From Nitrospirota bacterium (lineage in GTDB: Bacteria > Nitrospirota > Thermodesulfovibrionia > Thermodesulfovibrionales > JdFR-85), in the NCBI GenBank assembly GCA_015484595.1, contig WFMM01000008.1:288-64287 (forward strand): 64,000 bases of DNA, read 5' to 3'. Under the pieces are notes generated by a model, which saw nothing but the letters and a program-made list of their open reading frames with translations, was not told the origin of the DNA and did not search any database. Numbering within the stretch: position 1 is the first letter of the stretch; every line of letters begins with the position of its first letter. Shown here piece after piece: positions 22,152 through 60,261 of this stretch. Both the position numbers and the translations under genes were made by a program.

Positions 22152-22907
22152 TCATAGAGCAACGATACTCCAAAGGAGTTTTGATGCCACAAATAAAAGT
22201 ATCAGGGCAAACATCTGTTTTATCCACTTTGCCTTCATCTTCTCCTTCATCACATAGGCACCTATATTTGCACCCACTATCACCGCAAGGGCTGTTGAAA
22301 GCATAAGGGGCCAGTTGAAATGCCCCTCTGATAGATGCCCTACAAACCCTGAAAAGGATGAAAATATCACCACAAAGGCACTGGTTGCCGCAGCCTTTTT
22401 TGTCGGGTATCCAATGGCAAGCATCAGGGGAACAAAAAGAAATCCACCACCGATACCAAGAAGTCCGGCAATCATGCCGATAAGGAATCCACCTGCACCC
22501 ATCAGTAGCATCCTGAGGCCTATGGAGACCTCCCTTTCGGTATCGGGCTTGTGTGCTGTAAGGAGCATCCTTCCACCTGCAAAACACATGGCAATGGCAA
22601 ACATGAGTATCAGAATCCTTGTTGGAATCATGTCAGTAAGATATGCACCCACAGGTGCACCTATGAAAGAGGACAACACAAGGGGGATTGAGCCCTTTAC
22701 ATCCACCATCTTTGCCCGGAAGTAGACAACCGAGGCAGACACCACGGTGATACCGTTAAGCAAAAGCCCCGTTGGTATCGCCTCGGTCTTGAAGTCGTAT
22801 CCAAACCAGTGAAACACAGGTATGTAAAGCATGGCCCCGCCAAGACCGAGCATGGAAAAGACAAAGGCAAGGCCGAAGATGAGCAGTGAAACAACCACAA
22901 TAGTCAT
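22152..22907 (-). CDS. TauE/SafE-family anion exporter (membrane protein)
   Basis: 251 aa, polytopic, with two repeated halves containing GLGGG/GIGGG motifs. Confidence 0.75.
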   Translation of the reverse strand: MTIVVVSLLIFGLAFVFSMLGLGGAMLYIPVFHWFGYDFKTEAIPTGLLLNGITVVSASVVYFRAKMVDVKGSIPLVLSSFIGAPVGAYLTDMIPTRILILMFAIAMCFAGGRMLLTAHKPDTEREVSIGLRMLLMGAGGFLIGMIAGLLGIGGGFLFVPLMLAIGYPTKKAAATSAFVVIFSSFSGFVGHLSEGHFNWPLMLSTALAVIVGANIGAYVMKEKMKAKWIKQMFALILLFVASKLLWSIVAL

Positions 22908-22933
22908 AATGTTCTCCTCTTATTTATTTTGGT

Positions 22934-23060
22934 CAGGATGTTATTGCCTTTTCACTCATTCTCGCAGGACATCCTGTCCTGCTCCGAAAAACCACACTGA
23001 AGCAGCCATCCAGGCTGCTTCGGGCGAGTGCTGAAGCCGTTCAAAGGCAATAACATCCTG
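22934..23060. other. 127-bp structured element closed by an 18-bp perfect inverted repeat, with inner hairpins
   Basis: caggatgttattgccttt (22934-22951) pairs with aaaggcaataacatcctg (23043-23060). Inner hairpins are gcaggaca-tcc-tgtcctgc and gaagcagcc-atcca-ggctgcttc. Lies between the FmdE-like stop and the TauE start. Confidence 0.7.
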
Positions 23061-23070
23061 TTCCCATACC

Positions 23071-23679
23071 TCACTCTCCATACCCCGAGCAGGGGATGCA
23101 TACCAGTTTATTATCTGTAGTGAGCCTGAGTTTGTTTACAAAGGTAAGTTCCCCACAACTTTCGCACCTCTTTGCCTCAAAGATACCGGATCTCTTCTCA
23201 ACGGGCACCTCCTTTATTTCACCTATCTCAAGGAATTCCTCAACCGGAACAGTCAATATCTTATCCACCAGAGGGTCTGTAATCTCAGGCGGGATGTCCT
23301 GTGGGGGCACTCCCTCCTTACGCCTTTGCACAAAGGGTGAGTTAAGGGCCTTTTCAAAGAAATCCGGCTTTACCGAGACCCTTACCGAGCGGCCTGTTTT
23401 CTGGTCAATCAGGGTAAAGGCAAGTTTGTTGTAGTAGAGTTTCTGGACATTGGACTTACCATAGGTACAGCCCGTGGCGGTCATGATGCCGTCAAGAAAA
23501 CAGCCTGCGGCATGTCCCTTGCCTGTCTCAGAAAGCACAAAGAGTTCCTTGTCCTTGGCCCTTTCCACACCAAGGACCTCCATTGCCTTAAACCCCGCCC
23601 TGAGTCCCATGGGCATTGCAGGACACCTGTGCCCGTGAAACCTCATTGCCACATCAAGGTATTCCCTAAATTCCTTCAT
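23071..23679 (-). CDS. FmdE-domain protein with a C-terminal zinc ribbon
   Basis: The track ORF is trimmed to ATG 23679, which is preceded by GGAGGTG. Contains [16 protein letters not shown] (FmdE signature) and C-terminal CESC...CIPC. Confidence 0.75.
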
Positions 23680-23945
23680 CTCACACCTCCATTTTTTTAA
23701 TATGCTCAGCGAGCGCATTCCCCTGCAGCAAGACCGCAAGGCTCTTCGTTAAACCGGACAAAGACCGACGATATTTTATAATATTTTTTACTATATAATT
23801 ATTTAGTTATATTAAAATAAAAAAATAATAATTAAAAAAATAATAATTAAAATATCCTTTGTTAACCTGACATGCATGTTTAGACATTTAAAATGGCTCT
23901 AAACTTATATATCTGCTTCTTATATAACTCCAAGTAACTGATCTA

Positions 23946-24203
23946 TCAGCAACCCATATCAACACCGTCGTCCCAGGGGTCTTCCTCTTCGGGGTCATCA
24001 TCGGTTTTTTGGGTGGCTGATTTAAGGTCCTCTACTTTTAGCCTCCGGTGATTTTTTATCTTTAAGTGCTCGGTGTCCTGTGTGCTCTGTGAAGGCTGAA
24101 GGATGGTCTTTTTTGTCTGGTTAAAGAGCGACAGGTTTCCCCCTGCAATGGCGTTTGTTGTAAGGAAAAACAAAACTAAGAGTGAAATAGTCAGGGACTT
24201 CAT
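23946..24203 (-). CDS. Small secreted acidic protein, unknown function
   Basis: 85 aa. Signal peptide MKSLTISLLVLFFLTTNAIAG, acidic C-terminal half (DDDPEEEDPWDDGVDMGC). Last gene of the ArsR-headed operon. Confidence 0.45.
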   Translation of the reverse strand: MKSLTISLLVLFFLTTNAIAGGNLSLFNQTKKTILQPSQSTQDTEHLKIKNHRRLKVEDLKSATQKTDDDPEEEDPWDDGVDMGC

Positions 24204-24209
24204 ATTCTA

Positions 24210-24812
24210 TCACCTGCCTTCAGTGACTGGTTTTAGGCCATCGGGCACCTTCTTTGCATTGAGGTTTGCGATGGCCATGATGCCACCCTTAAGGGCGTAT
24301 ACATTATTATAACCCAGGATCCTCAGAGCCGTGGTAACGATTATCGCCCTTGGGCTACTGTGACAGATAATGACCACTGTGCCATCTGTTGGAATCCTGT
24401 CAAGGTTTTTCATTATGTCGGTCATCTGTATCCTCAATGCACCTGTAACACGGGTAAGTGCCTGCTCCTCTGGTGTGCGGACATCAATAAGGGTAATTTT
24501 TTCTCCCTTCATCATTTTTTTAACAAGTGCCTTTGCTGATATCCTGATGTCTCCTTTTTTCTGAACCTCACGGGTCATGAGGGAGAGGAACTCGTCTGCG
24601 TTTTTTGCAACTGCTGCCTTTTCAAGCCTTATCCTGAGGGCAGGATTTTCTGGGTTCTTTGCCAGGGCACTCAGGTAGGCATCCATTGCCTTTGCATACT
24701 TTGCCTGCTGAAAATAGAGGTCTCCCTGTTTTAGAATCTCATCAACAGATGAAGCCACTGCGGGCATTGCCATAACCAGCAGGGCAAATAATATTATAAG
24801 TGACTTTTTCAT
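24210..24812 (-). CDS. Periplasmic TPR and rhodanese-domain protein
   Basis: The track ORF 24210-24905 is trimmed to ATG 24812 (MKKSLIILFALLVMAMPAVASS signal peptide); the upstream extension is repeat R4. Contains a TPR segment and a rhodanese domain with active-site loop CHSSPR. Confidence 0.75.
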   Translation of the reverse strand: MKKSLIILFALLVMAMPAVASSVDEILKQGDLYFQQAKYAKAMDAYLSALAKNPENPALRIRLEKAAVAKNADEFLSLMTREVQKKGDIRISAKALVKKMMKGEKITLIDVRTPEEQALTRVTGALRIQMTDIMKNLDRIPTDGTVVIICHSSPRAIIVTTALRILGYNNVYALKGGIMAIANLNAKKVPDGLKPVTEGR

Positions 24813-24833
24813 CTTGGTCCTCCTTGAAGATTT

Positions 24834-24894
24834 AACCACAGAGGGCACAGAGTAATAAATAAAAACTCTTTTTTTCTCTTTGTTCTCTGTGGTT
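24834..24894. repeat. Repeat family R4 hairpin (AACCACAGAG ... CTCTGTGGTT)
   Basis: aaccacagagggcacagagtaataaataaaaactctttttttctctttgttctctgtggtt. Intercistronic. Confidence 0.85.
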
Positions 24895-24901
24895 TTAAAT
24901 T

Positions 24902-25135
24902 TCATCCGCCAAGCAGAGACTTGATTTTCTCAAACGGCGGTAAAGGCTTTCCTGCATGAAGTAGTTTGCCATCGATTACAAGTCCTGGAGTGCTCATGGT
25001 GTATTTCATTATCTCCGCCATGTCGGTGACCTTCTCAACAGTGGCGTTAATGCCAAGTTCCTTTATTGCCTGCTCTACTCTTCTTTTCATCTCCTCACAG
25101 TTTGGGCAACCTGGACCCAAAACCTTGATTTCCAT
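24902..25135 (-). CDS. Small thioredoxin-fold protein (redox-active disulfide protein 2 type)
   Basis: The track ORF is trimmed to ATG 25135, preceded by GAGGAGG. MEIKVLGPGCPNCEEMKRRV with a CPNC motif, 77 aa. Confidence 0.85.
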   Translation of the reverse strand: MEIKVLGPGCPNCEEMKRRVEQAIKELGINATVEKVTDMAEIMKYTMSTPGLVIDGKLLHAGKPLPPFEKIKSLLGG

Positions 25136-25165
25136 ATTTAACCTCCTCGATTTTAAAATATTTAG

Positions 25166-25243
25166 AACCACAGAGAACACAGAGTACCCAGAGCACACAG
25201 AGTAATAAACAAAAACTCTTTTTTCTCTGTGTCCTCTGTGGTT
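25166..25243. repeat. Repeat family R4 hairpin, second copy
   Basis: aaccacagagaacacagagtacccagagcacacagagtaataaacaaaaactcttttttctctgtgtcctctgtggtt. Confidence 0.85.
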
Positions 25244-25247
25244 TAGT

Positions 25248-26204
25248 CTATAGTATTGCATTAAACAGATAGCCAACGCTTATTATAGTTAAAGTCATTA
25301 TGCCAATAAATACTCCGAGCATCTGGGGTTTTAGGACCTTCCTCAGGATTATCATCTCTGGAAGAGACAGTGCTGTCACAGCCATCATAAAGGCAAGCAC
25401 CGTTCCCATGCTAAGGCCCTTCTCCATCAGCGCATAGACAATGGGTATCACCCCTGCTGCGTTTGAATAAAGGGGCACTCCAAGAAGCACTGCCGCAGGC
25501 ACAGCCAGTGGGTTCCCTGGCCCTGCAATCCTTGTAAGAAAATCCTCAGGCACATATCCGTGTATAAATCCTCCGATACCAATGGCAATGAGGATAAAAA
25601 GCCAGACCCTCCGCAGGATGTCCTTAGTGTTCCACTTTGCATACTCGAGCCTCTCGCGAAAACCCTGCTTTATAACATCACTGCCCTGCCCTGTCCTTAT
25701 CTTATAGACATACTCCTCTATCCACTTTTCAAACCCGAGCTTTCCGATTATCATACCACCGAATATTGCCACCAATAGCCCAGCTCCGATATAAATGGCC
25801 GTAACCTTCCAGCCAAAAAGCCCATAAAGTAAAACCACAGCTATCTCGTTTACCATTGGAGAGGAGATAAGAAAAGAAAATGTCACACCAAGGGGCACGC
25901 CTGCTTCAACAAAGCCAATAAAAAGAGGAACTGCCGAGCAGGAACAAAAGGGTGTTACCACACCAAGAAGTGCGGCAAGGATATTTCCGATAAAGAGCCT
26001 TCGATGGCTTAGAATCTTCTTTGTCCTCTCTGGTGGGAAAAAACTCCTCACAAAGGAGACGACAAATATCACCACCGCAAGAAGCAGAAATATCTTTAAC
26101 GTGTCGTAAACAAAAAAGTGCAGGGCATCTGCAAGCTTTGTCTGAGGTGAAAGCCCAAAAAGTTTAAAGACCACCGTGTCTGCTATCCATTTAAGCATTC
26201 TCAA
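25248..26204 (-). CDS. COG0701-type permease with a vicinal-Cys motif (ArsP-like permease family)
   Basis: 318 aa, polytopic. TPFCSCSAVPLF motif. Downstream of arsR and upstream of the thioredoxin-fold gene, a common arrangement. Confidence 0.75.
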   Translation of the reverse strand: MRMLKWIADTVVFKLFGLSPQTKLADALHFFVYDTLKIFLLLAVVIFVVSFVRSFFPPERTKKILSHRRLFIGNILAALLGVVTPFCSCSAVPLFIGFVEAGVPLGVTFSFLISSPMVNEIAVVLLYGLFGWKVTAIYIGAGLLVAIFGGMIIGKLGFEKWIEEYVYKIRTGQGSDVIKQGFRERLEYAKWNTKDILRRVWLFILIAIGIGGFIHGYVPEDFLTRIAGPGNPLAVPAAVLLGVPLYSNAAGVIPIVYALMEKGLSMGTVLAFMMAVTALSLPEMIILRKVLKPQMLGVFIGIMTLTIISVGYLFNAIL

Positions 26205-26298
26205 ATCATCCTTTTAATTGTGTTCTTTTAAATTATCTATATTACTATATAGTAATAGAGTAGTGTTTGTCAAGAATGATGTTACCTTACGAAGATGT

Positions 26299-26634
26299 TT
26301 ATCTCCCCTTTTGGGTTACATTGGAGAGTGCTTTGGCAAGCTCAGCAGACTTAAGGAGTTCTTTCTGAACCATCTTTTCTACCTTATCAAGGATTTCAAA
26401 TACCACCTTATCTTTAATCTTATAATATGAGCTTACACCTACCTTTCTGAACTCCACTATACCCGTCTGCCTTAAAAGGGAAAGGTGCTTTGAAACATTT
26501 GCCTGCTCTTCGCCAAGTATGGGAAGCATCTCACAGACACAACGCTCTCCTTCTCTCAGGAGTTCTACTATCTTAAGCCTCGTGGGTTGTCCCAGTGCCT
26601 TCAGGATATCTGCCTTTCTCTGCAGGATGTCCAT
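26299..26634 (-). CDS. ArsR/SmtB-family metalloregulator
   Basis: 111 aa. LGQPTRLKIVELL HTH region and a CVCE metal/metalloid-binding motif. Confidence 0.88.
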   Translation of the reverse strand: MDILQRKADILKALGQPTRLKIVELLREGERCVCEMLPILGEEQANVSKHLSLLRQTGIVEFRKVGVSSYYKIKDKVVFEILDKVEKMVQKELLKSAELAKALSNVTQKGR

Positions 26635-26723
26635 AAAGCCTCCTCAAACAAGACTTACCCCTCTACCAGTTAATTTATTTGGTACACAACAGGTGTTTTT
26701 ATATTATAATATTTAATGTAAAA

Positions 26724-28433
26724 ATGACCAATAATTCATTAAAGAAGAGATTAATACTCGTTACCGCCCTTGTCATTTCTTTGCTATTAATTAGCAAGCT
26801 TACTCTCCATTCTGCCCAGAGACCAGTCCGCATAGGTATAGCCTCCATGATTACACCTGTTGATGCGGTGAAATACTACCAGGAGATTGTTGATTATGTG
26901 GGTGAAAGGCTTGGTATGCCTGTTGAAATGGTATTAAGAAGGACCTATGATGAGATGGATAAGTTACTTGAGAAGGGAAAGGTGGACATTGCCTTTATCT
27001 GCTCTGCACCCTATGTTAAAAACCGCAGGGAGTTCGGCGTTGAACTCCTGGTGGCTCCCGAGGTAAAGGGCAGAGCCTTTTACAAGTCTTACATCATCGT
27101 TCATAAAGACAGCCCCTTTAAAAGGTTTGAAGACCTTAAGGGACATACCTTTGCATTTACTGATCCCAAGTCAAACTCGGGCAGGCTCTATCCTGTATAC
27201 AGGCTTGCTCAAAAGGGGCTGAGACCAGAAGATTTCTTCAAAAAATACATCTACAGTTACAGTCATAACAAATCGGTTGAACTGGTTGCAAAGAGGATAG
27301 TTGACGGTGCTGCAGTTGAAAGCCTGGTTTATGAATATATGAAAAAACAGGGAAACCCCTATGTGCAGGAGACAAGAATCATAGAGAAATCCCCTGATTT
27401 TGGTATTCCCCCAGTGGTTGTATCAACAGGTGTATCCCTTTTTGTGAAGGAAAAGATAAAGGAGATACTTCTTAACATGCACAGGACAGCAGAGGGTAAG
27501 AGGATACTTTCTGCAATGAACATAGACAGGTTTGTTGAGGTTCCTGACTCTAATTATGACTCCATAAGGGAGATGGAAAGGGTAGTTAGCAAATTACGCC
27601 CACCTTCAAAAGAACAAAAAAAGGATGACTCCATCATATACTTTGGTGTAATCCCGAGGGATAACCCCCGTATAACCTACGAGAAGTATCAACCTCTGAT
27701 AGATTACCTGACCGAGACCACAGGGCACCGTTTTGAACTGAAACTTAAAAAGAGTTATGAGGAAACAGTGGTCTCTCTTGGTAATGGTGAGACAGATGTG
27801 GCAATACTTGACCCCCTTACATATCTTGAAGCGCATGCCAGATATGGGGCAGTCTGTATATTAAAGTCTGTAAACTCCAAGGGCGAACCCTTTTACTATT
27901 CCATGATTATCACAAAAAAAGACAGGCCTTTAAAGTCCCTCTCAGAGCTTAAGGGTAAGAGCTTTGCCTTTTCAGCTATTAAATCGACCGCTGGAAACCT
28001 GATACCCCGATATCTGCTTGCCGAGGCAGGCATACATCTTGGAGACCTGGGGATGTATAAAAACTTCTATTATTATGAAACAGTTGTAAAGAGGGTTTTA
28101 AGTGGCGAGTTTGATGCAGGCGCTGTAAGGGATGCAGTTGCCAACAAATACATGCCCCTTGGGATAAAGGTGATTGCCCGGTCTGAGCCTATTCCTACTG
28201 GCCCTGTGGTAATAGGCCCGAGAACATCCTTTGTTACAGGCGAGATGATAAAGTCAGCCTTGATCAATATAAACAAGACCAAAAGGGGGCAGCAGGTTCT
28301 TAAAAAACTTGACCCTGAATTCTGGGGTGGTTTTGTTGAGGCAAGGGATTCAGATTATCAGGGGATAAGGGATATGATTAACAATGTGCCAAAGACCTGC
28401 GGGATGGGATGTCATCCAAAGATAAAACTATAG
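26724..28433 (+). CDS. Secreted protein with two tandem PhnD-type (phosphonate/oxyanion) substrate-binding domains
   Basis: The track ORF is trimmed to ATG 26724 (MTNNSLKKRLILVTALVISLLLISK signal/anchor). Two homologous halves each carry F(A)FTDPKSNSGRLYP / FAFSAIKSTAGNLIPRY motifs. The C-terminus reads TCGMGCHPKIKL. Confidence 0.75.
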   Translation: MTNNSLKKRLILVTALVISLLLISKLTLHSAQRPVRIGIASMITPVDAVKYYQEIVDYVGERLGMPVEMVLRRTYDEMDKLLEKGKVDIAFICSAPYVKNRREFGVELLVAPEVKGRAFYKSYIIVHKDSPFKRFEDLKGHTFAFTDPKSNSGRLYPVYRLAQKGLRPEDFFKKYIYSYSHNKSVELVAKRIVDGAAVESLVYEYMKKQGNPYVQETRIIEKSPDFGIPPVVVSTGVSLFVKEKIKEILLNMHRTAEGKRILSAMNIDRFVEVPDSNYDSIREMERVVSKLRPPSKEQKKDDSIIYFGVIPRDNPRITYEKYQPLIDYLTETTGHRFELKLKKSYEETVVSLGNGETDVAILDPLTYLEAHARYGAVCILKSVNSKGEPFYYSMIITKKDRPLKSLSELKGKSFAFSAIKSTAGNLIPRYLLAEAGIHLGDLGMYKNFYYYETVVKRVLSGEFDAGAVRDAVANKYMPLGIKVIARSEPIPTGPVVIGPRTSFVTGEMIKSALININKTKRGQQVLKKLDPEFWGGFVEARDSDYQGIRDMINNVPKTCGMGCHPKIKL

Positions 28434-29890
28434 TTACGGGCTTTTTAAGCAGAATACCACTACAGCAGAAGTTTATCCTTATCACTTCAGTAGCCATTGT
28501 GGTGCTGATGAGTATTATAGGATACCTTGTGACCATGAGGGAGCGTCAGATAATGTATGCAGACATTGAGCGGCAAGGCAGGGTGTTTGCCGAGACCCTT
28601 GCAATACCTGTAATCAACGACCTTATTTACGAACGGATGGGGCTTGTGGAGGAGGGTGGCCTTATTGACAACTACATTCGGGGCATATTCAATAAAAAGG
28701 AGTTGAACCTTCTTTATCTTGCAGTGCTTGACGAAGATGGAAGGGTCATCTCTCATAATGACTTTAGAGAATACGGAAAGGTTTATACTGACCCCCTGAC
28801 CAGACATGCCCTCAGGGCAAACACCACGGTGGTGCAGAAGTTTCACAGCAGCAAGACAGGCCACGATGCCCTTGATTTTGCCACTCCTTTATCAATCGGG
28901 AAAAAACGATGGGGAACCCTCAAGTTTGCTATCTCCCTTGAAGAGGTGGAGCATGAGATTTCAAATATGGTAAAAGGAATACTGTTCTTCACACTTGTGG
29001 TCCTTGTCGTGGGATTTTTTATAATCATAATTCTCAGTAGAAGGTTTATAAGACCCATAACCTATCTTGCCCGAACCATGGAGCGTGCTGGCTCAGGTGA
29101 CCTTGATGTGAAGGTTCACATAAAGGGTAATGACGAGCTTGCCCTTTTAGGACAGAGTTTTAACAACATGATAGAGCGGATAAAGCAGGCAAACCTTGAA
29201 CTAAAAAGGACACATGAAAAGCTACTTCAATCAGAAAAACTGGCATCCATTGGTATCCTCGCCTCTGGCGTTGCCCACGAGATTAACAACCCCCTTGGCG
29301 GAATGTTCAACTGTGTGGATATGCTTGAACTGATGGGTGAAAATGAGGAATTAAGACAGAAGTATCTCCACCTTCTTAAAGATGGGTTAAACAGGATTGA
29401 ATCAATCGTGGGGAAACTCCTCTGGATGTCAAGAACGGGAAGCCGTAATCCAGAGGTGGTCGATGTAAAAGCCCTGCTTCAGGACATCTATAAGTTCGTT
29501 GAGTACAGGTTAAGAAATAAAGACATAAGATACAGCGTAGATATAGAAGATGGCCTGACCATAATAATAGACCCCCACGATTTTCAACAGATTATGCTTA
29601 ATCTTATAATCAATGCAATCCATGCCATCAACAATACGGGAGAGCTTACGATAAAGGGCTACAGCGAGGACGATTACAAGATTATCACTGTTACGGACAC
29701 TGGAGAGGGAATTGACAGGGAGAATCTTCCTAAGATATTTGACCCCTTCTTTACCACAAAGCAGCCTGGTGAGGGCACAGGACTTGGACTCTGGTTGACT
29801 TACGAGATTGTTAAAAACTATAATGGCGAAATCACTGTAGAAAGCCAAAAGGGAGTTGGAACCACCTTTACGCTTAAGTTTAAGAGGTGA
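28409..29890 (+). CDS. Sensor histidine kinase (periplasmic Cache-like domain, HAMP, HisKA, HATPase)
   Basis: 493 aa. TM1, a roughly 150-aa extracytoplasmic domain, TM2, HAMP, H-box VAHEINNPL, GTGLGLWL. Overlaps the binding-protein gene by 25 nt. Confidence 0.88.
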   Translation: MSSKDKTIVTGFLSRIPLQQKFILITSVAIVVLMSIIGYLVTMRERQIMYADIERQGRVFAETLAIPVINDLIYERMGLVEEGGLIDNYIRGIFNKKELNLLYLAVLDEDGRVISHNDFREYGKVYTDPLTRHALRANTTVVQKFHSSKTGHDALDFATPLSIGKKRWGTLKFAISLEEVEHEISNMVKGILFFTLVVLVVGFFIIIILSRRFIRPITYLARTMERAGSGDLDVKVHIKGNDELALLGQSFNNMIERIKQANLELKRTHEKLLQSEKLASIGILASGVAHEINNPLGGMFNCVDMLELMGENEELRQKYLHLLKDGLNRIESIVGKLLWMSRTGSRNPEVVDVKALLQDIYKFVEYRLRNKDIRYSVDIEDGLTIIIDPHDFQQIMLNLIINAIHAINNTGELTIKGYSEDDYKIITVTDTGEGIDRENLPKIFDPFFTTKQPGEGTGLGLWLTYEIVKNYNGEITVESQKGVGTTFTLKFKR

Positions 29891-31245
29891 TGATGGATAA
29901 AAAGTCAGTTCTCATAATTGAAGATGAAAGGATAATGCGCATAACCATCGAGGATGCCCTTAAGGCTAAGGGTTATGAGGTAAAATCCTTTGAAAGGGCA
30001 TCGGATGGGCTGAAGGCATACAGCGAAGAGCCATTTGATATCGTGCTTACCGATGTAAGACTGCCTGACATAAACGGTATGGAGGTGCTAAGGAGGATTA
30101 AGGAGATAGATGATTCCTCTATGGTTATCATAATGACCGCCTTTGGCACCATAAAGGATGCGGTTGAGGCAATGAAGATGGGGGCCTTTGACTACATAAC
30201 CAAGCCATTCAGCCTTGATGAACTCTCATTGATTATCAGCAGAGCGGCAGAGGTAAAAAAGATGCAGGATGAAAACCTGAGACTTAAAAAGGCCATCTCC
30301 CGTTGCTATTGTTACCCAAACATTATTGGCGAAAGCGATGCAATGAAGAATGTATTCAGGATGATAGAGAGGCTTTCGCAATCGGACTCAACGGTTTTAA
30401 TACTTGGTGAAAGCGGAACTGGAAAGGAGCTGATAGCATCCACGATACATTATCAGGGAAAGAGGAAGGATGCACCCTTTGTGATTGTAAACTGCGGGGC
30501 ATTGCCAGAAAACCTTATCGAAAGCGAGCTCTTTGGTTACGAAAAGGGGGCCTTTACAGGTGCCACCCGCCGAAAACCCGGCCGTTTTGAGCTTGCAGAC
30601 GGCGGAACCATCTTTCTTGACGAGGTCGGGGAATTGCCCCCATCAGTGCAGGTCAAGCTCTTGAGGGTGCTTCAGGATGGAACCTTTGAACGACTTGGTG
30701 GAACAGAGACCATAAAGGTGGATGTAAGGGTAATTGCTGCAACCAATCGAGACCTTGAAAGGGAGGTAAGGGAGGGAAACTTCAGAGAAGACCTCTACTA
30801 CCGTCTTGCCGTAATACCCCTGACACTTCCACCACTCAGGGAAAGACGAGAGGACATCCCTCTTTTGATTGAGCACTTTCTTCAGCGTTGTAACAGCCGC
30901 CTTGGTAAACAGATTGTCTTTTCAAAGGATGCAGTGGAGGCACTCATGGAGTATCCTTTCCCTGGAAATGTCAGAGAGCTTGAAAACATCGTTGAGCGTA
31001 TGGTGACCCTCTGTGAATCAGACAGGGTAAAACGGGAAGACCTCCCTCAGCATGTGCTTAAAAAGGGACAGAAAAAAGACACTCCTGCCCAGCCACTTAC
31101 AAAGGTGGCTCAGGAAGCTGAAAAACAATACATTATCAGGGTTCTTAAACAGACAGGTGGTAACCGAAGCCGTGCTGCCTCAGTGCTTGGCATTAGCCGC
31201 AAAACCCTCTGGGAAAAGATGAGACAGTACGGCATAAATAACTGA
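29887..31245 (+). CDS. Sigma-54-dependent response regulator (NtrC/Fis family)
   Basis: 452 aa. Receiver domain, AAA+ domain with GESGTGKE and GAFTGA, C-terminal Fis HTH. Confidence 0.92.
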
Positions 31246-33250: not shown

Positions 33251-34639
33251 ATGTTCAGTTACAGAGTGTCATTACTCCTGATATGCCTTGTGGCGGTCTC
33301 CCTCCTTCAGAGCTGTGCCACCTATCAGGCAAAGACACTAAGAAGGGCCGATATTGAGGCATCACTCAGGCCGCCTGATAACCAGACCATCCTGGTTAAG
33401 GCCGAAAGGATAAGGCATCCCATTTTAAGGCCCATCAGGATTGACCTCAAAGACGGGCTTGGCCCTGATGAGGCAGCAGTGGTGGCGGTCATTGTAAACC
33501 CTGCACTCAGGGCAGAGAGAGACAGGGCCGGTATTGCCCGTGCACAACTCATTCAGGCAGGTCTTCTGCCCAACCCTCAACTTTCCCTCAGCATGGATAT
33601 CCCATCTGGTGGTGATACAACGGACACGGTTACAGGATACGGCCTCGGGCTCGGCATTGACCTGAGGTCCCTTATCACAAGAGGTGCAAGGCGTAAGGCG
33701 GCAGAGAAAGAACTCTCCTCTGTCAACCTTGAGGTGGCCTGGAAGGAGTGGCAGGTTGCAGAGGCAGCAAAGATGCACCTGTATCACATCTATTACCTGA
33801 ACCGCCTTCGTGACCTTGCTAAAAGGGCACTAAGCCTTGCAGACGAAAACTTAAATGCCATGAAAGAGGCAGTCCTGGCAGGTGAAAGGATATCTGCTGA
33901 CCTGAGCGATATGGAGGTAAGGGTAAAAGATGCCGTGACCACCCTTACTGACATAGAGATGAAGACGAAAAAGGAAACCCTGCTTCTTAAAAGAGCCATG
34001 GGATTTCCACCTGATAGGGTTATTCCTCTACAGAAGAAGATTAAAAACCCCTTCCTCTGCAGAACTCCCGAACCGGAAGAACTTCTTAACTCCCTCTATA
34101 GCAGACCTGATATCCTTGCACTCAGGGAGGCTTACAGTGCAGAGGATGCCAGACTGAGGGAGGCCATCCTCTCACGGTTTCCTGACATAGGCATTGGGAT
34201 TGGTTATTCACGGGGAACAGACGGCCTTATCACCATCGGGCTATCTATCAGCATAGAACTGCCCCTTTTTGACCATGCCCAGGGTAGGGTCGCCCTGAGA
34301 AAGGCCACCATGAAGGAGGTCTTTGACAGGTATGTAGCAAGGGTATTTGAGGCACGCTCGGAGGTGATGGAACTTATCTCTGATATGGGTTTTATAAAGA
34401 GAAAACTCCATACCCTACGGAACCTGATTAATTACCTGAAAGGCCAGTGCCAGACATACGGGGAGTTATTGAAGGTGGGGATGACAGATAAACTCCATTA
34501 CTACGATGTCTGTAGCAGATTGATTTCTGAAGAGATAAAGGAGATAAAACTCAAAGAGTTGCTTACAGATATGGGGATTGGTATTGAGACCGCCTCTGGC
34601 AGGTATTTTCAGACAGAGGGCTGCACTTTTGATAAATAA
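33251..34639 (+). CDS. TolC-family outer membrane efflux lipoprotein
   Basis: 462 aa. Lipobox LLQSC, and the two-repeat OEP architecture typical of RND-associated outer membrane factors. Confidence 0.82.
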   Translation: MFSYRVSLLLICLVAVSLLQSCATYQAKTLRRADIEASLRPPDNQTILVKAERIRHPILRPIRIDLKDGLGPDEAAVVAVIVNPALRAERDRAGIARAQLIQAGLLPNPQLSLSMDIPSGGDTTDTVTGYGLGLGIDLRSLITRGARRKAAEKELSSVNLEVAWKEWQVAEAAKMHLYHIYYLNRLRDLAKRALSLADENLNAMKEAVLAGERISADLSDMEVRVKDAVTTLTDIEMKTKKETLLLKRAMGFPPDRVIPLQKKIKNPFLCRTPEPEELLNSLYSRPDILALREAYSAEDARLREAILSRFPDIGIGIGYSRGTDGLITIGLSISIELPLFDHAQGRVALRKATMKEVFDRYVARVFEARSEVMELISDMGFIKRKLHTLRNLINYLKGQCQTYGELLKVGMTDKLHYYDVCSRLISEEIKEIKLKELLTDMGIGIETASGRYFQTEGCTFDK

Positions 34640-34655
34640 ACACGGAGGCAAAGGC

Positions 34656-35751
34656 ATGAGAAACCCTGTAATGGCTTTCAGTATATTTATTGCCCTTCTG
34701 ATTACAATCATCGGGGGAGGATACCCCCTTTCGGCGCATGGTGAGGCTCTGGCAAGAGGGAAAGATACTCTTCAGGGATTCAGGATTAAGACATCCCGGC
34801 CCTCAAAGAGGCCATTCCGTGTCACAATCAATTTCTACGGAGGTGTTGTTAGCCAGCATAAGGTGGCACTCAGGGCACCAATTTCAGGCAGGATTATGAA
34901 GATCAGGGCCGCAGATGAGGCTGAGGTAAAAAAGGGAGACATCCTCTTTGTCATGGGTGGGCCTGAGGTTGAGAGAAAGATACAGGCCCTTAACTCGCAG
35001 GCATCCCATCTCAGGGGACTTTTATCAGAACTCAGGGGCGTGCTTAAGAGGAAGGAGAGTGCCCTTTAAGAGAAAACTCATCTCCATAGATGAACTTGAG
35101 GCAGTGAAACTTCAACTCATTAAGACAGAGAATGCCTACAACGAGAGCCTTCTTAAACTTCATCAACTTGAGGATTCCCTGAAACTCAGGGCACCACTTG
35201 AAGGTAGGTTCACGAGAAGGACAGTTTTTGAGGGCCAGGATGTGGACAGGGGCGAGGTCATTGGCTATATCGTTGATACCCGTCATCTCAGGGTGGTTGG
35301 GACGGCCTTTCCCCGGCATGAATATACAGAAATTAAAGGGAAAAAGGCGGTTATATACACCGGGGATGGTCTTTCTGTCCATGGCACTGTCAAAAATGTC
35401 CTGACTGAAAGGGCACCTTCAGGGGGTGTAAGGGTATGGATTGAGTCAGGGGATATAGACAGGGCACTCAGGGTCGGCGAGTCTGTCCGTGGCATCATAG
35501 TATTGAGGACAGACCGGAATGCCCTTTCAGTGCCTGAAAGGGCGGTGGTCTATGATGAGCATGGAAGGCCCCTTGTATTTATCAGGACAAAGGATAACCA
35601 GTATGTAAGATGGCCCATCCGTGTAGGGGTTTTATCAGGTGGGTCGGTTGAGGGCATCTCAGGCATCTCAGAGGCAGATGAGGTGGTAATAGAGGGTGCC
35701 TATGAACTCTTTTACAGGGATTTCAACCGCACCTTCAGGGTGGCAGACTGA
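34656..35751 (+). pseudogene. RND membrane fusion protein (HlyD family) interrupted by a +1 frame change at 35064-35069
   Basis: Two overlapping track ORFs (34578-35069 and 34948-35751) together make one MFP. The lipoyl half is in frame A (LRAPISGRIMKIRAADEAEVKKGDILF). The hairpin, second lipoyl half, beta-barrel and MP domain are in frame A+1 (LISIDELEAV..LRAPLEGRF..). Confidence 0.8.
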
Positions 35752-37228
35752 TGAGGACCATACTTAAAAGACTCACTGACAATCCCCTTATGATGGTATT
35801 TGCCGTGGTGGTTATCGCATTTAGCGGCATATTTGCAGCCACCCACATGCCTGTTGACCTCTTTCCCAACCTTGATATCCCTGTGGTCAATATCATCACC
35901 CACTACCCCGGGGCATCCCCTGAGGAGATGGAACTCCTGATAAGCAGGCCCGTGGAGGATGTCATGAGGGGGCTTCAGGGGGTAAAGCGTGTCTCATCCA
36001 CATCAGCACTCGGGGTCTCGGAGGTTACGGTGGAGTTTACATGGGGCACTACTGTGAGGGATGCAAGGCAGTTGGTTCAGGCAGGTCTTTCCAGGCTGAA
36101 TGGACTCCTGCCACAGGGGGTTGTCCCAAGGATGGAAAACATCGGCACCACCCTGCAGGAGGTAACAGGCTATGTGGTGGTGTTACCATCTATGGCACGG
36201 ATACTGAGCGCCTCATATCCCTTGCAGACAGGGTTGAGGGGTTAATGTCCAGAGAGCCTTCCTTATCAAACATCGTTAATAATACAAAGATAAAGGCAGG
36301 GGAGGTGGTGGTGAGGCTTAGATATCCCGACCTTGCCCGTTATGGGGTAAGCACAGAGGAGGTCTTTGATACCCTTGAGTCTGCATTTACCGGTCTTGAG
36401 GCCACGGGGATAATAAGACAGCAGGAGACGGTGGGCATTGTGGTGAAACTCAGGGGGATTGACACTCACAGGCCAGAGGATATCCGCAGGATCCCCATCA
36501 ATACAGCCACAGGGGAGGTAATACCCCTTGACAGGGTGGCCGATGTCAACCTGATACACACACCTTCAACCATCACAAGGCTCAACGGTCAGAGGGAGAT
36601 AACCCTTGTGGCAGAGGTGGAGGGCTCAATCCCCCGTGTGGTTTCAAGGTTGAGGGAGAAGTTCAGCCAGTTGAAAATCCCTGAGGGCTACTCCATTGAG
36701 TTTACAGGCCAGTTCAGGGTGCTCACAAGGACACTCTATGAACTAGTAATGGTGGTTGTGGCTGCTGTGGTTCTTATCTACCTCATAATGGCGATGCAGT
36801 TTCGCTCATTTCTCCAGCCCCTGATGATACTGACAACCATCCCACTGTCACTCGTTGGTGCGGCAGTCGGGCTTTTTATTACACATAAAGGCCCTGATGT
36901 ATCTGTTGGTATGGGCATTATCACACTTGTGGGTATTGCCGTAAACAATGCCATTATACTCGTGGATTATGCAAACAGTGAGATAAGGCGAGGAAGCCGC
37001 CCCGAGGAAGCACTCATTAAGGCATCCTCTGTGAGGCTAAGGCCCATACTGATGACAGCACTTACCACCATCTTTGCACTCATACCCATAGCCATAGGCA
37101 CAACCACTGGGTCCAATATCTTTCAGTCCTTTGCGATTACCGTAATTGGCGGGCTCCTGACCGGCACCCTCTCCACCCTCCTTGTGGTGCCTGTTTTGAT
37201 AAGTATCCTGAATAATGACAAAAACTGA
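35751..37228 (+). pseudogene. RND efflux pump (AcrB/CzcA superfamily) with a large internal deletion and a frame change
   Basis: ORF 35751-36245 gives TM1 and the first roughly 140 aa of an RND pump. ORF 36041-37228 gives the last roughly 350 aa (second periplasmic loop end and TM8-12). The total of about 490 codons compares with about 1,000-1,050 for the family. The frames differ at about 36171-36195. Confidence 0.8.
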
Positions 37229-37715: not shown

Positions 37716-37731
37716 TGGCACATCAATTGCT
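37716..37731 (+). promoter_or_regulatory. Sigma-54 (RpoN) -24/-12 promoter
   Basis: cTGGCACatcaaTTGCTt matches the TGGCAC-N5-TTGCW consensus exactly. It is on the plus strand, about 250 bp upstream of the Fe-S subunit start codon. Confidence 0.75.
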
Positions 37732-37778
37732 TAAATAAATTGCCAAAAGAAAACAACAGAGTAATCAATCAAATTACA

Positions 37779-37850
37779 GGGGAGTTTGAGGTGGCAGGGC
37801 TCCTCAAAGGGGCTCCGCCCCTTTGTAACCCCAATAAGGATTTTAATATA
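37779..37850. repeat. Repeat family R2, single inverted unit with linker
   Basis: ggggagtttgaggtggcagggctcctcaaaggggctccgcccctttgtaacccc aataaggattttaatat is the reverse complement of the R2 unit and linker. It lies inside the predicted 5' UTR of the Mo-enzyme operon. Confidence 0.8.
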
Positions 37851-37983
37851 AGTAAATTAATAAAAATCATTGAGTTAGAGCCTGTAGAACATGCTCTAAC
37901 AGAAAGGGAGGTGGGAGAAAGGGGGATTGAGTTATCCCTGCCAGCAGTAACATTATAATTACTTTTTAAGAAAGGAGGAGTGT

Positions 37984-38760
37984 ATGGCTGTAAACGAGAT
38001 CGTGAGAATGTATGAAGACCTCAATCGGGCTTTAAAGAAACCGGTTGAGAAGAGGTCATGGGTTATGGTCATTGATGTTAGGCGTTGTGTTGGTGACCAT
38101 GCCTGCGCCGTAAGTTGTATGGCAGAAAATGTCTGCCCACCTGGGACATCCTACCGCTGGGTTTTTGAAACCGAATATCAGAATTATCCAAAACTTGACA
38201 GGTTTTTTATGCCTGCTAACTGCCAGCACTGTGACAACCCACCCTGTCTTAAGGCTGCAAACAGACACAAAAGGGGTGCAATCACAAAAAGGCCTGACGG
38301 AATCGTGGTCTTTGACTATGAAAAACTCTCTCGTAGTTCTTCAGCCATGGATGCTGCAAAGAAGGCATGCCCCTACTATGCAATAGTTGATGACAGGGGC
38401 GACTACTATACAGAAAACACCCCAAAGCTCGAGCCCTATGAGACCAGGACATTCTTTGAATATGACAGAAAACTAAACAGAAAAAAGACAAAGGGAACTA
38501 TCCGTAAATGCCACTTCTGCCTTCACAGGCTTGAAAGCGGGATGATACCTGCCTGTGTGTCCACCTGTATCGGAAGGGCCATGTACTTTGGTGACCTTAA
38601 TGATCCCAGGTCACTGGTGTCTGAACTTATCAGGAAGGAAAAGACGCTCAGGCTGAAAGAGGCAGAGGGAACAAAACCGAGGGTTTACTACATTGGTTTT
38701 AAGGACAGGGCAAACATATCAATTAGCACACCGGCTACATGCCAGGTATGCCATCAATAA
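37984..38760 (+). CDS. Fe-S (ferredoxin-type) electron-transfer subunit of a molybdopterin oxidoreductase; variant of the DmsB/PsrB/TtrB family
   Basis: 258 aa. Cys groups CVGDHACAVSC, CQHCDNPPC, ..ACPYYA, CHFC...PACVSTC, then MYFGDLNDP. Ends in CQVCHQ. RBS AAGGAGG. Confidence 0.85.
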   Translation: MAVNEIVRMYEDLNRALKKPVEKRSWVMVIDVRRCVGDHACAVSCMAENVCPPGTSYRWVFETEYQNYPKLDRFFMPANCQHCDNPPCLKAANRHKRGAITKRPDGIVVFDYEKLSRSSSAMDAAKKACPYYAIVDDRGDYYTENTPKLEPYETRTFFEYDRKLNRKKTKGTIRKCHFCLHRLESGMIPACVSTCIGRAMYFGDLNDPRSLVSELIRKEKTLRLKEAEGTKPRVYYIGFKDRANISISTPATCQVCHQ

Positions 38761-42008: not shown

Positions 42009-42407
42009 ATGCAAACTTTGAAGGAGGACCTTAACATTAACATACTGGTTCTTGATGACGAGGCTTCAATTGTATCGACCCTTTTGCAATACCTTCATAA
42101 GAGAGGTTACGATATTGTTGGCACTACGAATCCTGATCTTGCTGAGTCCATAATACTTACAGGCTGTGTGGACTTCTTACTGCTTGATATAAACCTCGGG
42201 TGCACCACAGGCATTGAACTTTACAGAAGGGTAAAGGAAAAGGGCTTTAAAGGAAAGGTGCTTTTTATCACTGCCTATGACATAGGAGATTATCAGGAAG
42301 AACTGAATGCCATTGGGGTAAACCATGTCATTCAAAAACCCTTTCAATTATATACAGTGGTTGAAATGATACAGAAGATCGCCAGTAAGGAGGTTAAACA
42401 GGGTTAG
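42009..42407 (+). CDS. Stand-alone response-regulator receiver domain (CheY-like)
   Basis: 132 aa. ILVLDDE acidic pocket, phospho-acceptor in LLLDINL, conserved T (FITAY) and K (QKPF). The start is uncertain: ATG 42009 has no SD, and a strong AAGGAGG lies inside codons 5-7. Confidence 0.75.
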   Translation: MQTLKEDLNINILVLDDEASIVSTLLQYLHKRGYDIVGTTNPDLAESIILTGCVDFLLLDINLGCTTGIELYRRVKEKGFKGKVLFITAYDIGDYQEELNAIGVNHVIQKPFQLYTVVEMIQKIASKEVKQG

Positions 42408-42441: not shown

Positions 42442-42774
42442 ATGGAGACATCCGTTGCTTTTTCACAGAGGTTAAAGGAGACTAAAAAATTGAAGACAAC
42501 CCTCGTTGTTAACGAAACAGTTATACCCCTTAACGAGTTTGTACAGACCTATATTGGTAATGTATTAAGGGCCATGGTCTTGAGCCTCGGTTTTGAGGCA
42601 GAGAGGGTGCATCTCTTTATAGAATCAGGAGATATAAAGATATATGCTGATGATGAACCGGTCCCCCTGAGAAAGGACTTTGTAAAACTCCTTTTAGAAA
42701 GCACCATTAAGGGAGTGCTTTCGCCACTTAAAGGAATCTTCTGGCTTGAGAGAATAACCATAATGACCGAGTAA
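42442..42774 (+). CDS. Hypothetical 110-aa protein (no family recognised)
   Basis: An ORF with plausible codon usage and no TM or signal sequence. Follows the receiver gene after a 34-nt gap. Confidence 0.4.
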   Translation: METSVAFSQRLKETKKLKTTLVVNETVIPLNEFVQTYIGNVLRAMVLSLGFEAERVHLFIESGDIKIYADDEPVPLRKDFVKLLLESTIKGVLSPLKGIFWLERITIMTE

Positions 42775-54392: not shown

Positions 54393-54620
54393 ATGGTTGA
54401 AATTATAAAAAGAGATAGAGAGTTTGAAAAAACACTATCAGAGATGTCGATGGAGCAACTGTTGGAGCTTGAAGAAATTATTATGAGGGTGATGAAGAGA
54501 AAACTTAAAAGCAGGAAGATTGATAACTGGAGAAATGATTTTTTAAAAATTTCAACCTGGTCGCACCTCAAAGGTGATAAAGAAGTAAAGGTTGATAAAT
54601 GGGAAATAGAGAAGTTTTAG
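54393..54620 (+). CDS. Putative antitoxin partner of the PIN toxin (family not recognised)
   Basis: 75 aa. Charged helical N-terminus, C-terminal WSHLKGDKEVKVDKWEIEKF. Overlaps the PIN gene by 22 nt. Visibly AT-rich compared with the flanking nuo genes. Confidence 0.55.
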   Translation: MVEIIKRDREFEKTLSEMSMEQLLELEEIIMRVMKRKLKSRKIDNWRNDFLKISTWSHLKGDKEVKVDKWEIEKF

Positions 54621-54988
54621 TTGATACAACTGTCATGATTGAATTTCTTAGAAAGAGGAAAAAAGAAAGAAGTAATTTGTGGAAATTGAAGGAGCAAGAA
54701 ATAAATTGTTTTGCTTCAACAATTACTGTTTTTGAGCTGTACGCTGGTGCAATTACAAAGAGGCATCTTGAGGATTTAAAAAGATTATTTAAATGGGTAG
54801 AGATAGTTTCTTTTTCAGGAGAGATTGCTCAGAGAGCTGCACAAATTTACAGAGATTTAAAGTCAAAAAATCAGATGATAGAGTTTAGAGATATATTTAT
54901 AGGTGCAACTGCACTTGAATTAAAGGTGCCGTTGGTGACTTTAAATAAACAGCATTTTAAAAGAATCAAGGGATTGGAATTGTTTTAA
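54599..54988 (+). CDS. vapC: PIN-domain ribonuclease toxin (VapC family)
   Basis: 129 aa. Conserved acidic residues in the usual positions (LVDTTV, TVFELYAG, FRDIFIGATA) and C-terminal LVTLNKQHF. Confidence 0.85.
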   Translation: MGNREVLVDTTVMIEFLRKRKKERSNLWKLKEQEINCFASTITVFELYAGAITKRHLEDLKRLFKWVEIVSFSGEIAQRAAQIYRDLKSKNQMIEFRDIFIGATALELKVPLVTLNKQHFKRIKGLELF

Positions 54989-59043: not shown

Positions 59044-60261
59044 TTATATCTTTTCCTTTCTAAGTTTCTTTGCCTCGTCCTTTATCTTCTGGAGGGTCTC
59101 TTTCATCTGTGCCCAGCCATACCAGTGCATGTAGTCAGCATTCAAGTGAAAGGCACCCTGAAAGGTCCTCATGCGGTACTCAAGAAACATCACATAAAGG
59201 TCCTGCTCAATAGCACTCTTAGCCTCGTAGAACTGAAGCAGGTCAGGGGCAAATTTCCAGCTGGCAGGTTTCTTAAGGATGCCCTCATCGTATAGAGCTT
59301 TGACCGTCCTTATGGCCTCTGCCATGAGTTTGTCAGCCTCACGGATTATCTTGTCTCCTGCCTCAAGTTGTGCCTTTGCATAAGAGGGGCTGTGGCATCT
59401 TGAGCAGATTTTTAACATCTTATTTCTTTCTGCCTGAAACTCCTCCTTTGTAAGCCTTGCCACCTTTCCTGCCTTTACGACCTCAAGTCTCTCTGTGGGT
59501 TTACCCTTTTCGTCAAGCACTCCAAGGGCCTGAAGTATTGTAACCCTGTCTTTTAACCATGCAGGGTCATCCTCTGGCAGTCTGACTGCAAGAAATCCCC
59601 AGGCAGTCATTACCCTGTGGTTGCCATCAGACATGTGGCAGGTCTGACATGTGGGTGCCCTCTTTGAGCCCTGTCCTTCTATCTGCCAGATTGTGCCGTG
59701 TTTCGAGGTTGACCACATCTCCCACTGAGGATGGTCAAAACCCATGTGGCAGGACTGACATGCCCTTGGGTCAAGGGCCTCCTTTACGTTAAAGGTGTGA
59801 CGGGTATGACAGGAGTCGCAGGAACCACTTCCGTAACGGTATTGTTTTACTTCCTCCGGAGACTTTATCCCTATCTTATGACAACCTGAACAACCCTTGT
59901 ATCCCCCTCCCACTATCATTGAAGGCTGGTGCTGAAGCATGGGCATTGACTTCATAGCTATCCAGGCAAGTGAGTGTTTTCCATCCATAAACTGGGAGAC
60001 CTTCTCGGGATGGCACTTTTTGCAGGTCTCAGGGGTGGGAAGTTTTGCAAGCTTTGCGTCTTCAGCTCCTTTTTTATGGGCACTTCCGTGACAGGTGGAG
60101 CAATCAAGCCCAGCCTTTCCCATCTTTCCACTGAGAAACTGCTCCACTATTCCAGGGGTGACCTTTTCGTGACAGCTGATACACTGTGACTTTGCAAGGG
60201 ACACTGTAGGGAGGAGCGTAATAAAAAACAGACCAATCATTGCCGATAGAAGCCTTTTCAT
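59044..60261 (-). CDS. Octaheme c-type cytochrome, hydroxylamine oxidoreductase (HAO)-like family, short form
   Basis: 405 aa. Signal peptide, then eight CxxCH motifs (CISCH, CSTCH, CKKCH, CSGCH, CDSCH, CQSCH, CQTCH, CSRCH). DHPQWEMWSTSKHG and CSRCHSPSYAKAQLEAGD resemble HAO-family spacing. Helical C-terminal domain. Confidence 0.75.
   Translation of the reverse strand: MKRLLSAMIGLFFITLLPTVSLAKSQCISCHEKVTPGIVEQFLSGKMGKAGLDCSTCHGSAHKKGAEDAKLAKLPTPETCKKCHPEKVSQFMDGKHSLAWIAMKSMPMLQHQPSMIVGGGYKGCSGCHKIGIKSPEEVKQYRYGSGSCDSCHTRHTFNVKEALDPRACQSCHMGFDHPQWEMWSTSKHGTIWQIEGQGSKRAPTCQTCHMSDGNHRVMTAWGFLAVRLPEDDPAWLKDRVTILQALGVLDEKGKPTERLEVVKAGKVARLTKEEFQAERNKMLKICSRCHSPSYAKAQLEAGDKIIREADKLMAEAIRTVKALYDEGILKKPASWKFAPDLLQFYEAKSAIEQDLYVMFLEYRMRTFQGAFHLNADYMHWYGWAQMKETLQKIKDEAKKLRKEKI

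Follow-up and report, generated by a model that had tools for sequence, protein, structure and literature searches.

A widespread TtrB-like subclass without cluster FS4 or a membrane anchor ends in a CxxCH tail that may carry haem c

The 64-kb stretch of DNA analyzed here (hereafter the window; 64,000 nucleotides of contig WFMM01000008.1 from the Nitrospirota assembly GCA_015484595.1) encodes a ferredoxin-type iron-sulfur protein, B, immediately followed by a catalytic subunit, A, that resembles those of tetrathionate reductases (Ttr). Subunit B is one of the ferredoxin-type beta subunits that occur in complex iron-sulfur molybdoenzymes. It has lost the ligands of the cluster known as FS4, the one nearest the membrane, is encoded without a membrane-anchor gene, and ends in a CxxCH tail. 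Proteins with these three features form a TtrB-like subclass that is widespread and so far undescribed. Comparison of gene loci and protein sequences indicates that loss of FS4, loss of the anchor, and gain of the tail go together, which is the strongest support for the interpretation offered in an earlier first-pass annotation of this DNA, made from the sequence alone. On the reading favored here, to which we give somewhat better than an even chance, B-A is a Ttr-like enzyme, soluble and periplasmic, and its tail, once exported by the twin-arginine translocation (Tat) system, acquires covalent haem c and replaces both FS4 and the quinol anchor.

In the ligand scheme known from NarH and PsrB, each cluster takes three Cys residues from one group and the fourth from the partner group. 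In B, group I reads C35-x2-D38-x2-C41-x3-C45, group II reads C80-x2-C83-x4-C88, and group IV is complete (C176, C179, C191, and C195); in group III, residues 116-128 are SRSSSAMDAAKKA, followed by C129-P130 as the sole remnant. Given this scheme, the missing Cys residues make up the complete FS4 ligand set, and the sets of FS1, FS2, and FS3 are kept. In place of sixteen ligands for four clusters, B is left with eleven Cys residues and D38, which are sufficient for three clusters. The protein ends with T-C253-Q-V-C256-H257-Q258-stop. Every residue that the first-pass annotation had named for the four groups and the C terminus was found in its place in the translation (Table 1). The gene has a strong AGGAGG ribosome-binding site just 5' of its ATG.

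Subunit B matches the Pfam family Fer4_11 with an E value of 2.7e-23. Its top NCBIfam matches are DsrO (slightly the highest), TtrB, and ArrB, all of them far under the respective cut-offs (132.9 bits vs 416 for TtrB). Among its relatives of solved structure, sequence comparison ranked PsrB (2vpw_B, 1.9e-33) first and also retrieved ArrB (6cz7_B). The AlphaFold2 model of B, built on 28 homologues, had a mean predicted local distance difference test (pLDDT) score of 88.3, with helices at residues 112-116 and 119-128 scoring 95-97. According to Foldseek, the nearest solved folds are ArrB (6cz7_B), PsrB (2vpw_B), and the beta subunit of pyrogallol-phloroglucinol transhydroxylase (4v4c_B); the probability was 1.00 for ArrB, PsrB, and others, and the fold is of the two-domain ferredoxin type. 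The last of these structures (Foldseek E = 1e-13) is particularly instructive: in the alignment, transhydroxylase beta lacks the fourth Cys of group II and the first three Cys residues of group III but keeps the final Cys-Pro. This pattern of ligand loss, identical to that in B, agrees with the earlier claim that a single cluster was cleanly lost, and since a solved protein has the same ligands missing, losing FS4 is structurally tolerated. The transhydroxylase likewise has no membrane anchor. However, it is cytoplasmic, unlike B-A with the Tat motif on its Ttr-like A subunit; its beta subunit carries an unrelated C-terminal domain where B has the CxxCH tail, and the similarity is confined to residues 25-131 and, weakly, 171-238.

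A first homologue search yielded 120 proteins with 51-92% identity to B (121 sequences with the query). A second search, seeded by a distant representative, added a branch of 115 sequences with the same features, whose named members are mostly Acidobacteria. The pooled set comprises 233 complete FS4-less proteins, about 38-92% identical to the two queries used. The FS4 Cys residues of group III are absent from all 233, with no Cys anywhere in the segment corresponding to residues 112-128, and in all of them FS1, FS2, and FS3 keep their 11-12 ligands unchanged. The A92 substitution stood up as the absence of an FS4 Cys but not as a conserved Ala: this position is occupied by Ala, Leu, or Val and, in a single protein (P0068, from locus L001), by Cys. 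The tail has the form CxxCH in 226 of the 233 proteins, CxxxH in one, and only the His residue in four; two proteins have no tail. Thus, conservation of the CxxCH tail and of the Cys-free group III replacement, both suggested for checking in the first-pass annotation, was borne out, as was its view that the loss is not decay. Judging by these alignments, the FS4-less, CxxCH-tailed state is a family trait shared by over 200 uncharacterized relatives.

The tail itself combines a strictly kept end with a drifting linker. In the first alignment, C253 is found in 117 of the 121 sequences, C256 in 116, and H257 in all, and exactly one residue follows CxxCH in 103. The linker between the YY[IL] motif and the first Cys comprises 7-16 residues of variable sequence. 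Tail variants poor in Cys, such as AAYHT, ASFHP, TSVHT, and ECxx[W/Q]H, retain the His residue, which haem ligation predicts and cluster ligation does not. In the Armatimonadota locus L003, where the B tail reads TSVHT, A is directly followed (14277-16223) by two genes of the haem-b type, similar to DOMON and the gamma subunit of ethylbenzene dehydrogenase, and by a gene for a protein with three transmembrane segments; the DOMON genes may provide a haem-b-based substitute for the c-haem tail. The two tail-less proteins are P0344 and P0373 (293 amino acids). The latter has a canonical C terminus (…EPKVYYLV) and represents either an evolutionary intermediate or a short-contig artefact.

Four-cluster relatives offer the appropriate comparison. 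When one genome per species was scanned, most of the matches listed were canonical proteins, and the best match to the window among them stood at 55%; loci from these matches, in which open reading frames (ORFs) were called and aligned, served as canonical comparators. A profile search covering 1.84 billion cluster representatives gave 312 matches at E ≤ 1e-30, among them approximately six tail-class clusters (at 50% identity). Canonical proteins share 41-53% identity with B, contain group III as CIGCRYC and a Cys at position 92, and end about 20 residues before the end of the tail class, in 38 of 43 cases just two residues past YY[IL]. In 34 of the 42 canonical loci, the B and A genes are separated by a gene of about 1.1-1.3 kb encoding 8-10 transmembrane segments, which proved to be Pfam NrfD in all four cases tested. 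In the tail class, the B gene directly neighbors the A gene at each of the 12 loci, with a gap of up to ~160 nucleotides. This comparison substantiates the match between cluster loss and a missing anchor gene that had been noticed in the window. A tblastn search of the window found no NrfD-like sequence (all E > 1), and among 11 tail-class loci such a sequence occurs only in L009, upstream of B. In neighbor-joining trees of loci L001-L090, which carry no support values, the tail class forms one group of B and falls into four places in the tree of A. This disagreement reflects either poor tree resolution or the pairing of modified B subunits with different A lineages; these trees were not used to decide between subunit swapping and repeated loss of the anchor.

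The A gene starts 7 nucleotides past the stop codon of B. Among the NCBIfam families, A scores highest with TtrA; its 514 bits fall far short of the cut-off of 1750, so that it is not an equivalog. The FS0 ligands C77, C80, C84, and C129, as well as C284 in the HTTICEQS motif, are invariant in all 42 sequences, and C284 is probably the Mo/W ligand, by analogy with Psr and Arr. The twin-arginine motif of A, TRRGLLKAG, has counterparts in the family, with Tat motifs on 41 of the 42 A sequences. The B protein of this organism lacks a signal peptide of its own; 120 of the 233 B homologues have their own Tat motif. These motifs point to a periplasmic location of B-A.

Of the known systems, TtrBCA (of the Salmonella type, with its environmental four-cluster homologues) resembles B-A in several respects: TtrA is the best family match of A and TtrB is among the best of B, the B gene comes first, export is by the twin-arginine route, and sensing involves a Phosphonate-bd-type domain, which is also present in TtrS. 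B-A differs from it in that both subunits score far under the equivalog cut-offs, there is no TtrC/NrfD gene, B has three clusters instead of four as well as the CxxCH tail, and the regulator is sigma-54-dependent, whereas that of Ttr is of the LuxR type. In PsrABC, PsrB has the same beta-subunit fold but possesses four clusters and an NrfD-type anchor, PsrC, and ends without a tail soon after its YY[IL]-type motif. ArrAB, whose ArrB subunit gives the closest solved fold (E = 8e-19), is a soluble periplasmic heterodimer with no anchor of its own and draws electrons from a membrane cytochrome. However, ArrB keeps four clusters and has no haem motif, and the gene order is A followed by B.

In the mechanism that we favor, the signal-less B would leave the cell bound to A, which carries the twin-arginine signal. 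After export, the cytochrome c maturation system would attach haem covalently to C253 and C256, with H257 as the proximal haem ligand and the class-specific Met or Lys residue at position 76 as a possible distal one. The role of FS4 and TtrC as the entry or exit point for electrons would fall to this one haem, and electrons could pass from periplasmic cytochromes through it to FS3, FS2, and FS1 and on to FS0 and the molybdenum site of A. The analysis shows the motifs and how well they are conserved, their coupling to anchor loss, the Tat motifs, and the fold; from these we infer haem attachment, the distal ligand, the position of the haem, the direction of electron flow, and the substrate of B-A. 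The tail family probably represents a new way to wire such enzymes to soluble cytochromes. The broader proposition, to which we give an even chance, is that the tail is a natural haem tag: these would be the first Tat-exported, pre-folded iron-sulfur proteins to gain covalent c-type haem on a minimal C-terminal CxxCH, a single tethered haem would replace a cluster and a quinol-oxidizing subunit, and, in Nitrospirota, Acidobacteriota, Methylomirabilota, Desulfobacterota, Gemmatimonadota, and others, a respiratory molybdoenzyme would thereby have exchanged its link to the quinone pool for one to the pool of periplasmic cytochromes c.

The C-x-x-C-H spacing of the tail is exactly that of the haem c motif. 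A further point in favor of haem comes from position 76, which is occupied by Met in 128 of the 233 tail-class proteins, by Lys in 102, by Val in two, and by Ile in one. In 43 canonical proteins, this residue is Leu, Ile, Thr, or Val and never Met or Lys, both of which are known as axial haem ligands. In clostridial ferredoxins, the residues immediately preceding the first Cys of a motif point toward the partner cluster; by analogy, residue 76 would face the vacated FS4 site. Other candidates for the distal ligand fared less well. M200, another Met specific to the class, was downgraded, being more variable than position 76 and part of a GRAM motif shared with the beta subunit of perchlorate reductase. 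The His located three residues before the first Cys in the Acidobacteria branch was rejected as a universal ligand, as it accompanies Lys76 in 70 of 103 sequences and Met76 in 2 of 122. The search for a His or Met in A that would distinguish the classes ended without a candidate, with A634 as the only residue that separates them.

Haem attachment to such a tail is plausible as chemistry, by analogy with artificial systems. The purified bacterial CcsBA protein places haem on a 9-residue CXXCH peptide, for which two thiols and a His suffice (PMC8112865), and a flexible haem tag engineered at the C terminus has been described and put to use (Braun et al. 2005, as cited in PMC6962350). For maturation by Ccm or CcsBA, these systems need no more than a short and flexible CXXCH at the C terminus, as would be the case in B; they differ from it in being artificial and exported unfolded by the general secretory (Sec) pathway, whereas B would be a natural example among Tat-exported iron-sulfur proteins. 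The organism under study does mature c-type cytochromes, given that the reverse strand of the window carries, at positions 59044-60261, a gene for an octahaem c-type cytochrome (8 CxxCH motifs, Pfam Multi-haem_cyto, and a likely N-terminal signal, judged by eye), a possible redox partner of B-A. In the Gemmatimonadota locus L009, genes for CcmF, CcmH, an octahaem c7-like cytochrome, an iron-sulfur protein of the Fer4_11 ferredoxin type, and NrfD (2773-9421) lie directly upstream of a tail-class B-A pair, and a gene with weak Porin_O_P/Porin_4 matches under the cut-offs is found downstream (14172-15224). The upstream genes could form a dedicated haem lyase and a quinol-to-cytochrome module able to feed a haem-bearing B. 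L009 is the only locus with Ccm genes beside B-A, a single case and not a rule.

Several observations weigh against covalent haem on the tail. Natural c-type cytochromes normally leave the cell unfolded through Sec; a cytochrome c exported by Tat in the folded state would be atypical. No Tat passenger is known to us to acquire its covalent haem only once exported, and our search of open-access papers and preprints did not find one loaded with haem at that stage. In the tail-class loci examined, no cytochrome gene is consistently adjacent to B-A. CxxCH arises by chance in iron-sulfur proteins, as illustrated by the FS0 motif of A, which reads CLQCH. The occurrence of M200 in the perchlorate reductase beta subunit, which has no haem c, means that a class-specific Met is not proof of ligation, and A supplies no class-specific His or Met. 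The tail is the part of the B model with the lowest confidence (pLDDT 61-67). Finally, with the shortest linkers, of 7 residues, the reach from the end of the group IV domain to the former FS4 site may be tight, so that the haem could sit at another place along the chain.

The tail might instead act, without any haem, as a redox-active dithiol or a sulfur-carrying swinging arm, similar to the C-terminal arm of DsrC, that reaches the substrate funnel of A or a partner protein and exchanges thiol/disulfide or persulfide sulfur. The Ttr-like nature of the enzyme and the flexibility of a tail placed at the extreme C terminus suit this idea, as do the sulfur-related neighbors (rhodanese and TauE in the window and TusA in locus L089). 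It appears unlikely, however, because the His residue is more strictly kept than either Cys, variants without both Cys residues persist, the spacing is precisely that of haem c, and the arm would arise exactly upon loss of FS4 and the anchor for no evident reason. Quite unlikely as well is the proposal that the tail, either cofactor-free or with a simple metal such as zinc, is a structural cap over the surface bared by the loss of TtrC and FS4, with soluble donors feeding FS3 directly. Soluble ArrAB, the nearest solved fold, functions without an anchor, the three-cluster transhydroxylase beta has no replacement cofactor, and the low model confidence of the tail would also be in line with a cap. 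Nevertheless, a cap would hardly demand an invariant C-x-x-C-H one residue from the end in proteins that range over ~40-90% identity and have a drifting linker, and it leaves the class-specific Met/Lys76 unexplained.

As a third possibility, the haem that His257 ligates would be non-covalent or belong to a partner protein, with the Cys residues being secondary (for example, forming a disulfide), so that B would not be a true c-type cytochrome. Such an arrangement is easier to square with Tat export of a folded protein and with the existence of the His-only variants, one of which is followed by the DOMON haem-b-type genes. We consider it improbable, given that both Cys residues are present at the exact haem c spacing in 226 of the 233 proteins and that the DOMON genes are seen in one lineage only. 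Random decay, with B as a degenerating or pseudogenized TtrB losing Cys residues by drift, might be suspected from the visibly degraded efflux cluster nearby but has a negligible chance of being correct, as it is already refuted by the loss of the same FS4 positions across the 233 homologues with other ligands invariant and is at odds with the confident model of B, its strong ribosome-binding site, and the intact partner A with its invariant FS0 and Mo ligands.

In databases, members of the subclass currently go by the names "tetrathionate reductase subunit B" or "4Fe-4S dicluster domain-containing protein." A search of open-access papers and preprints found none that describes the subclass or reports a haem motif for any TtrB-like protein. 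In an Acidobacteriota bin, a ttrAB pair without ttrC has been reported and ascribed to the end of the contig, with no mention of the missing cluster or the CxxCH tail (bioRxiv 10.1101/2020.10.01.322446).

If the covalent haem on the tail is real, this family would break the working rule that cytochromes c are exported through Sec and cofactor-loaded iron-sulfur proteins through Tat, and cytochrome c maturation on folded proteins could be studied with a minimal substrate of natural origin. The haem would also change the reading of metagenomes, in which the label "tetrathionate reductase subunit B" is now taken as a sign of quinol-linked respiration, and would suggest a simple way in which engineered redox enzymes might be connected to cytochromes or electrodes. 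In the usual description, complex iron-sulfur molybdoenzymes are put together from a kit of catalytic, four-cluster, and anchor subunits. The tail family is a tidy and repeated alternative, in which the anchor and the last cluster are dropped and a five-residue putative haem motif is added. Even without haem, the strictness with which tail gain accompanies the loss of FS4 and of the anchor demands an explanation.

A separate change affects FS1, the cluster next to the catalytic subunit. The first-pass annotation listed D38 together with the FS4 substitutions; the residue is indeed present in B but is not a trait of the family. Position 38 is occupied by Asp in 50, Glu in 2, and Cys in 69 of the 121 sequences of the first set and by Cys in all 113 sequences of the second set (115 in total) that have a residue there. 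Asp or Glu at this position is paired with C51 in 50 of 52 sequences, whereas Cys38 is paired with a residue other than Cys in 61 of 69 and with a second Cys in the remaining 8 (Fisher p = 7e-23, not corrected for phylogeny). The eight sequences with Cys at both positions plausibly represent an intermediate state. D38 is thus confined to a subclade, and its covariation with C51 ties it to FS1 and not FS4; the likeliest interpretations of this covariation are that C51 takes over as the ligand or that FS1 is Asp-ligated or a three-iron cluster. The possibility raised earlier that another Cys, such as C51, rebuilds a fourth cluster was rejected, since C51 covaries with D/E38 of group I and is missing in most of the family.

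Table 1. Positions in the window of the B-A genes, of individual sites in B, and of putative regulatory elements
Feature	Coordinates	Strand	Basis or remark
B, three-cluster ferredoxin-type electron-transfer subunit with C-terminal CxxCH tail	37984..38760	+	Translation of 258 amino acids
D38 (codon GAC), second group I ligand position (cluster FS1)	38095..38097	+	Sequence
C51 in ENVCPPG, covarying partner of D38	38134..38136	+	Alignment
M76, class-specific Met/Lys, four residues before group II; candidate distal haem ligand	38209..38211	+	Alignment
A92, at the place of the fourth group II Cys (FS4 ligand)	38257..38259	+	Cys in canonical relatives
Residues 112-128, predicted helices in place of the group III C-x2-C-x2-C	38317..38367	+	AlphaFold2 model
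C-terminal tail of 21 residues: 15-residue variable linker and C253-x-x-C256-H257-Q258	38695..38757	+	Alignment
A, Ttr-like catalytic subunit with Mo/W-bis(pyranopterin guanine dinucleotide), 1062 residues	38768..41956	+	NCBIfam TtrA
Periplasmic binding protein with two Phosphonate-bd domains, first gene of the putative sensing cassette	26679..28433	+	Pfam, E = 6e-134, two stretches
Sensor histidine kinase (sCache_3_2, HAMP, HisKA, HATPase_c)	28409..29890	+	Domain matches
Sigma-54-dependent response regulator (receiver, Sigma54_activat, HTH_8)	29887..31245	+	Domain matches
Candidate sigma-54 promoter (-24/-12), TGGCACATCAATTGCT	37716..37731	+	253 nucleotides upstream of the B start codon
Single-domain response-regulator receiver, possibly in the operon	42009..42407	+	Pfam Response_reg

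Upstream of B-A, the window encodes a putative sensing cassette consisting of a binding protein, a kinase, and a sigma-54-dependent activator. The same cassette is found directly upstream of B-A in loci L087 and L089 and, with the binding protein split into two genes, in L005; the kinase-activator pair upstream in L001 is of a different type. In the window, a DedA-PAP2 gene and a degraded efflux cluster of the resistance-nodulation-division (RND) type lie between the cassette and B-A. In this RND cluster (34578-37228), the AcrB-like gene is present as two ORFs that cover profile positions 7-144 and 671-1018 of 1021, and the membrane-fusion gene, too, is broken into two ORFs, which overlap. Expression of B-A is probably driven by the candidate sigma-54 promoter under the control of the cassette. 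The promoter sequence is the sole zero-mismatch match to TGGCAC-N5-TTGCW in the 64 kb. A search upstream of B in the other loci did not find the exact consensus, apart from one unrelated match, so the call is based solely on the window. The 253-nucleotide leader holds a 72-codon ORF (37740-37958) without a family match. It contains no riboswitch or other known RNA, and nothing in the window reaches the Rfam gathering score.

Downstream of A, the stand-alone receiver gene has a counterpart of the same kind in L087. Past it, a 110-codon ORF (42442-42774) shows a weak resemblance to the C-terminal part of MobB/FeS-domain proteins; L087 has an ORF of about this length in a similar place, after the receiver and FmdE genes.

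On the reverse strand, positions 22152-26634 encode ArsR, an ArsP_1 permease, a 124-residue ORF, a TPR-rhodanese protein, FmdE, and a TauE/SafE exporter. Genes for FmdE, ArsR, and ArsP_1 are also located beside the tail-class B-A in L088, and those for FmdE, an ArsR-type regulator, and TusA in L089. Molybdenum cofactor biosynthesis genes are found in L001, and porins of the O/P type in L009 (by the weak Pfam matches under the cut-offs) and in L008 (by sequence resemblance alone). These recurring sulfur- and molybdenum-related neighbors, taken with the sensing cassette, are suggestive of an anionic substrate, probably a sulfur oxyanion or a thio-anion.

Elsewhere in the window, a PIN-domain (toxin-like) gene (54599-54988) sits inside an apparent complex I (nuo) operon, between two large ORFs for putative membrane subunits.

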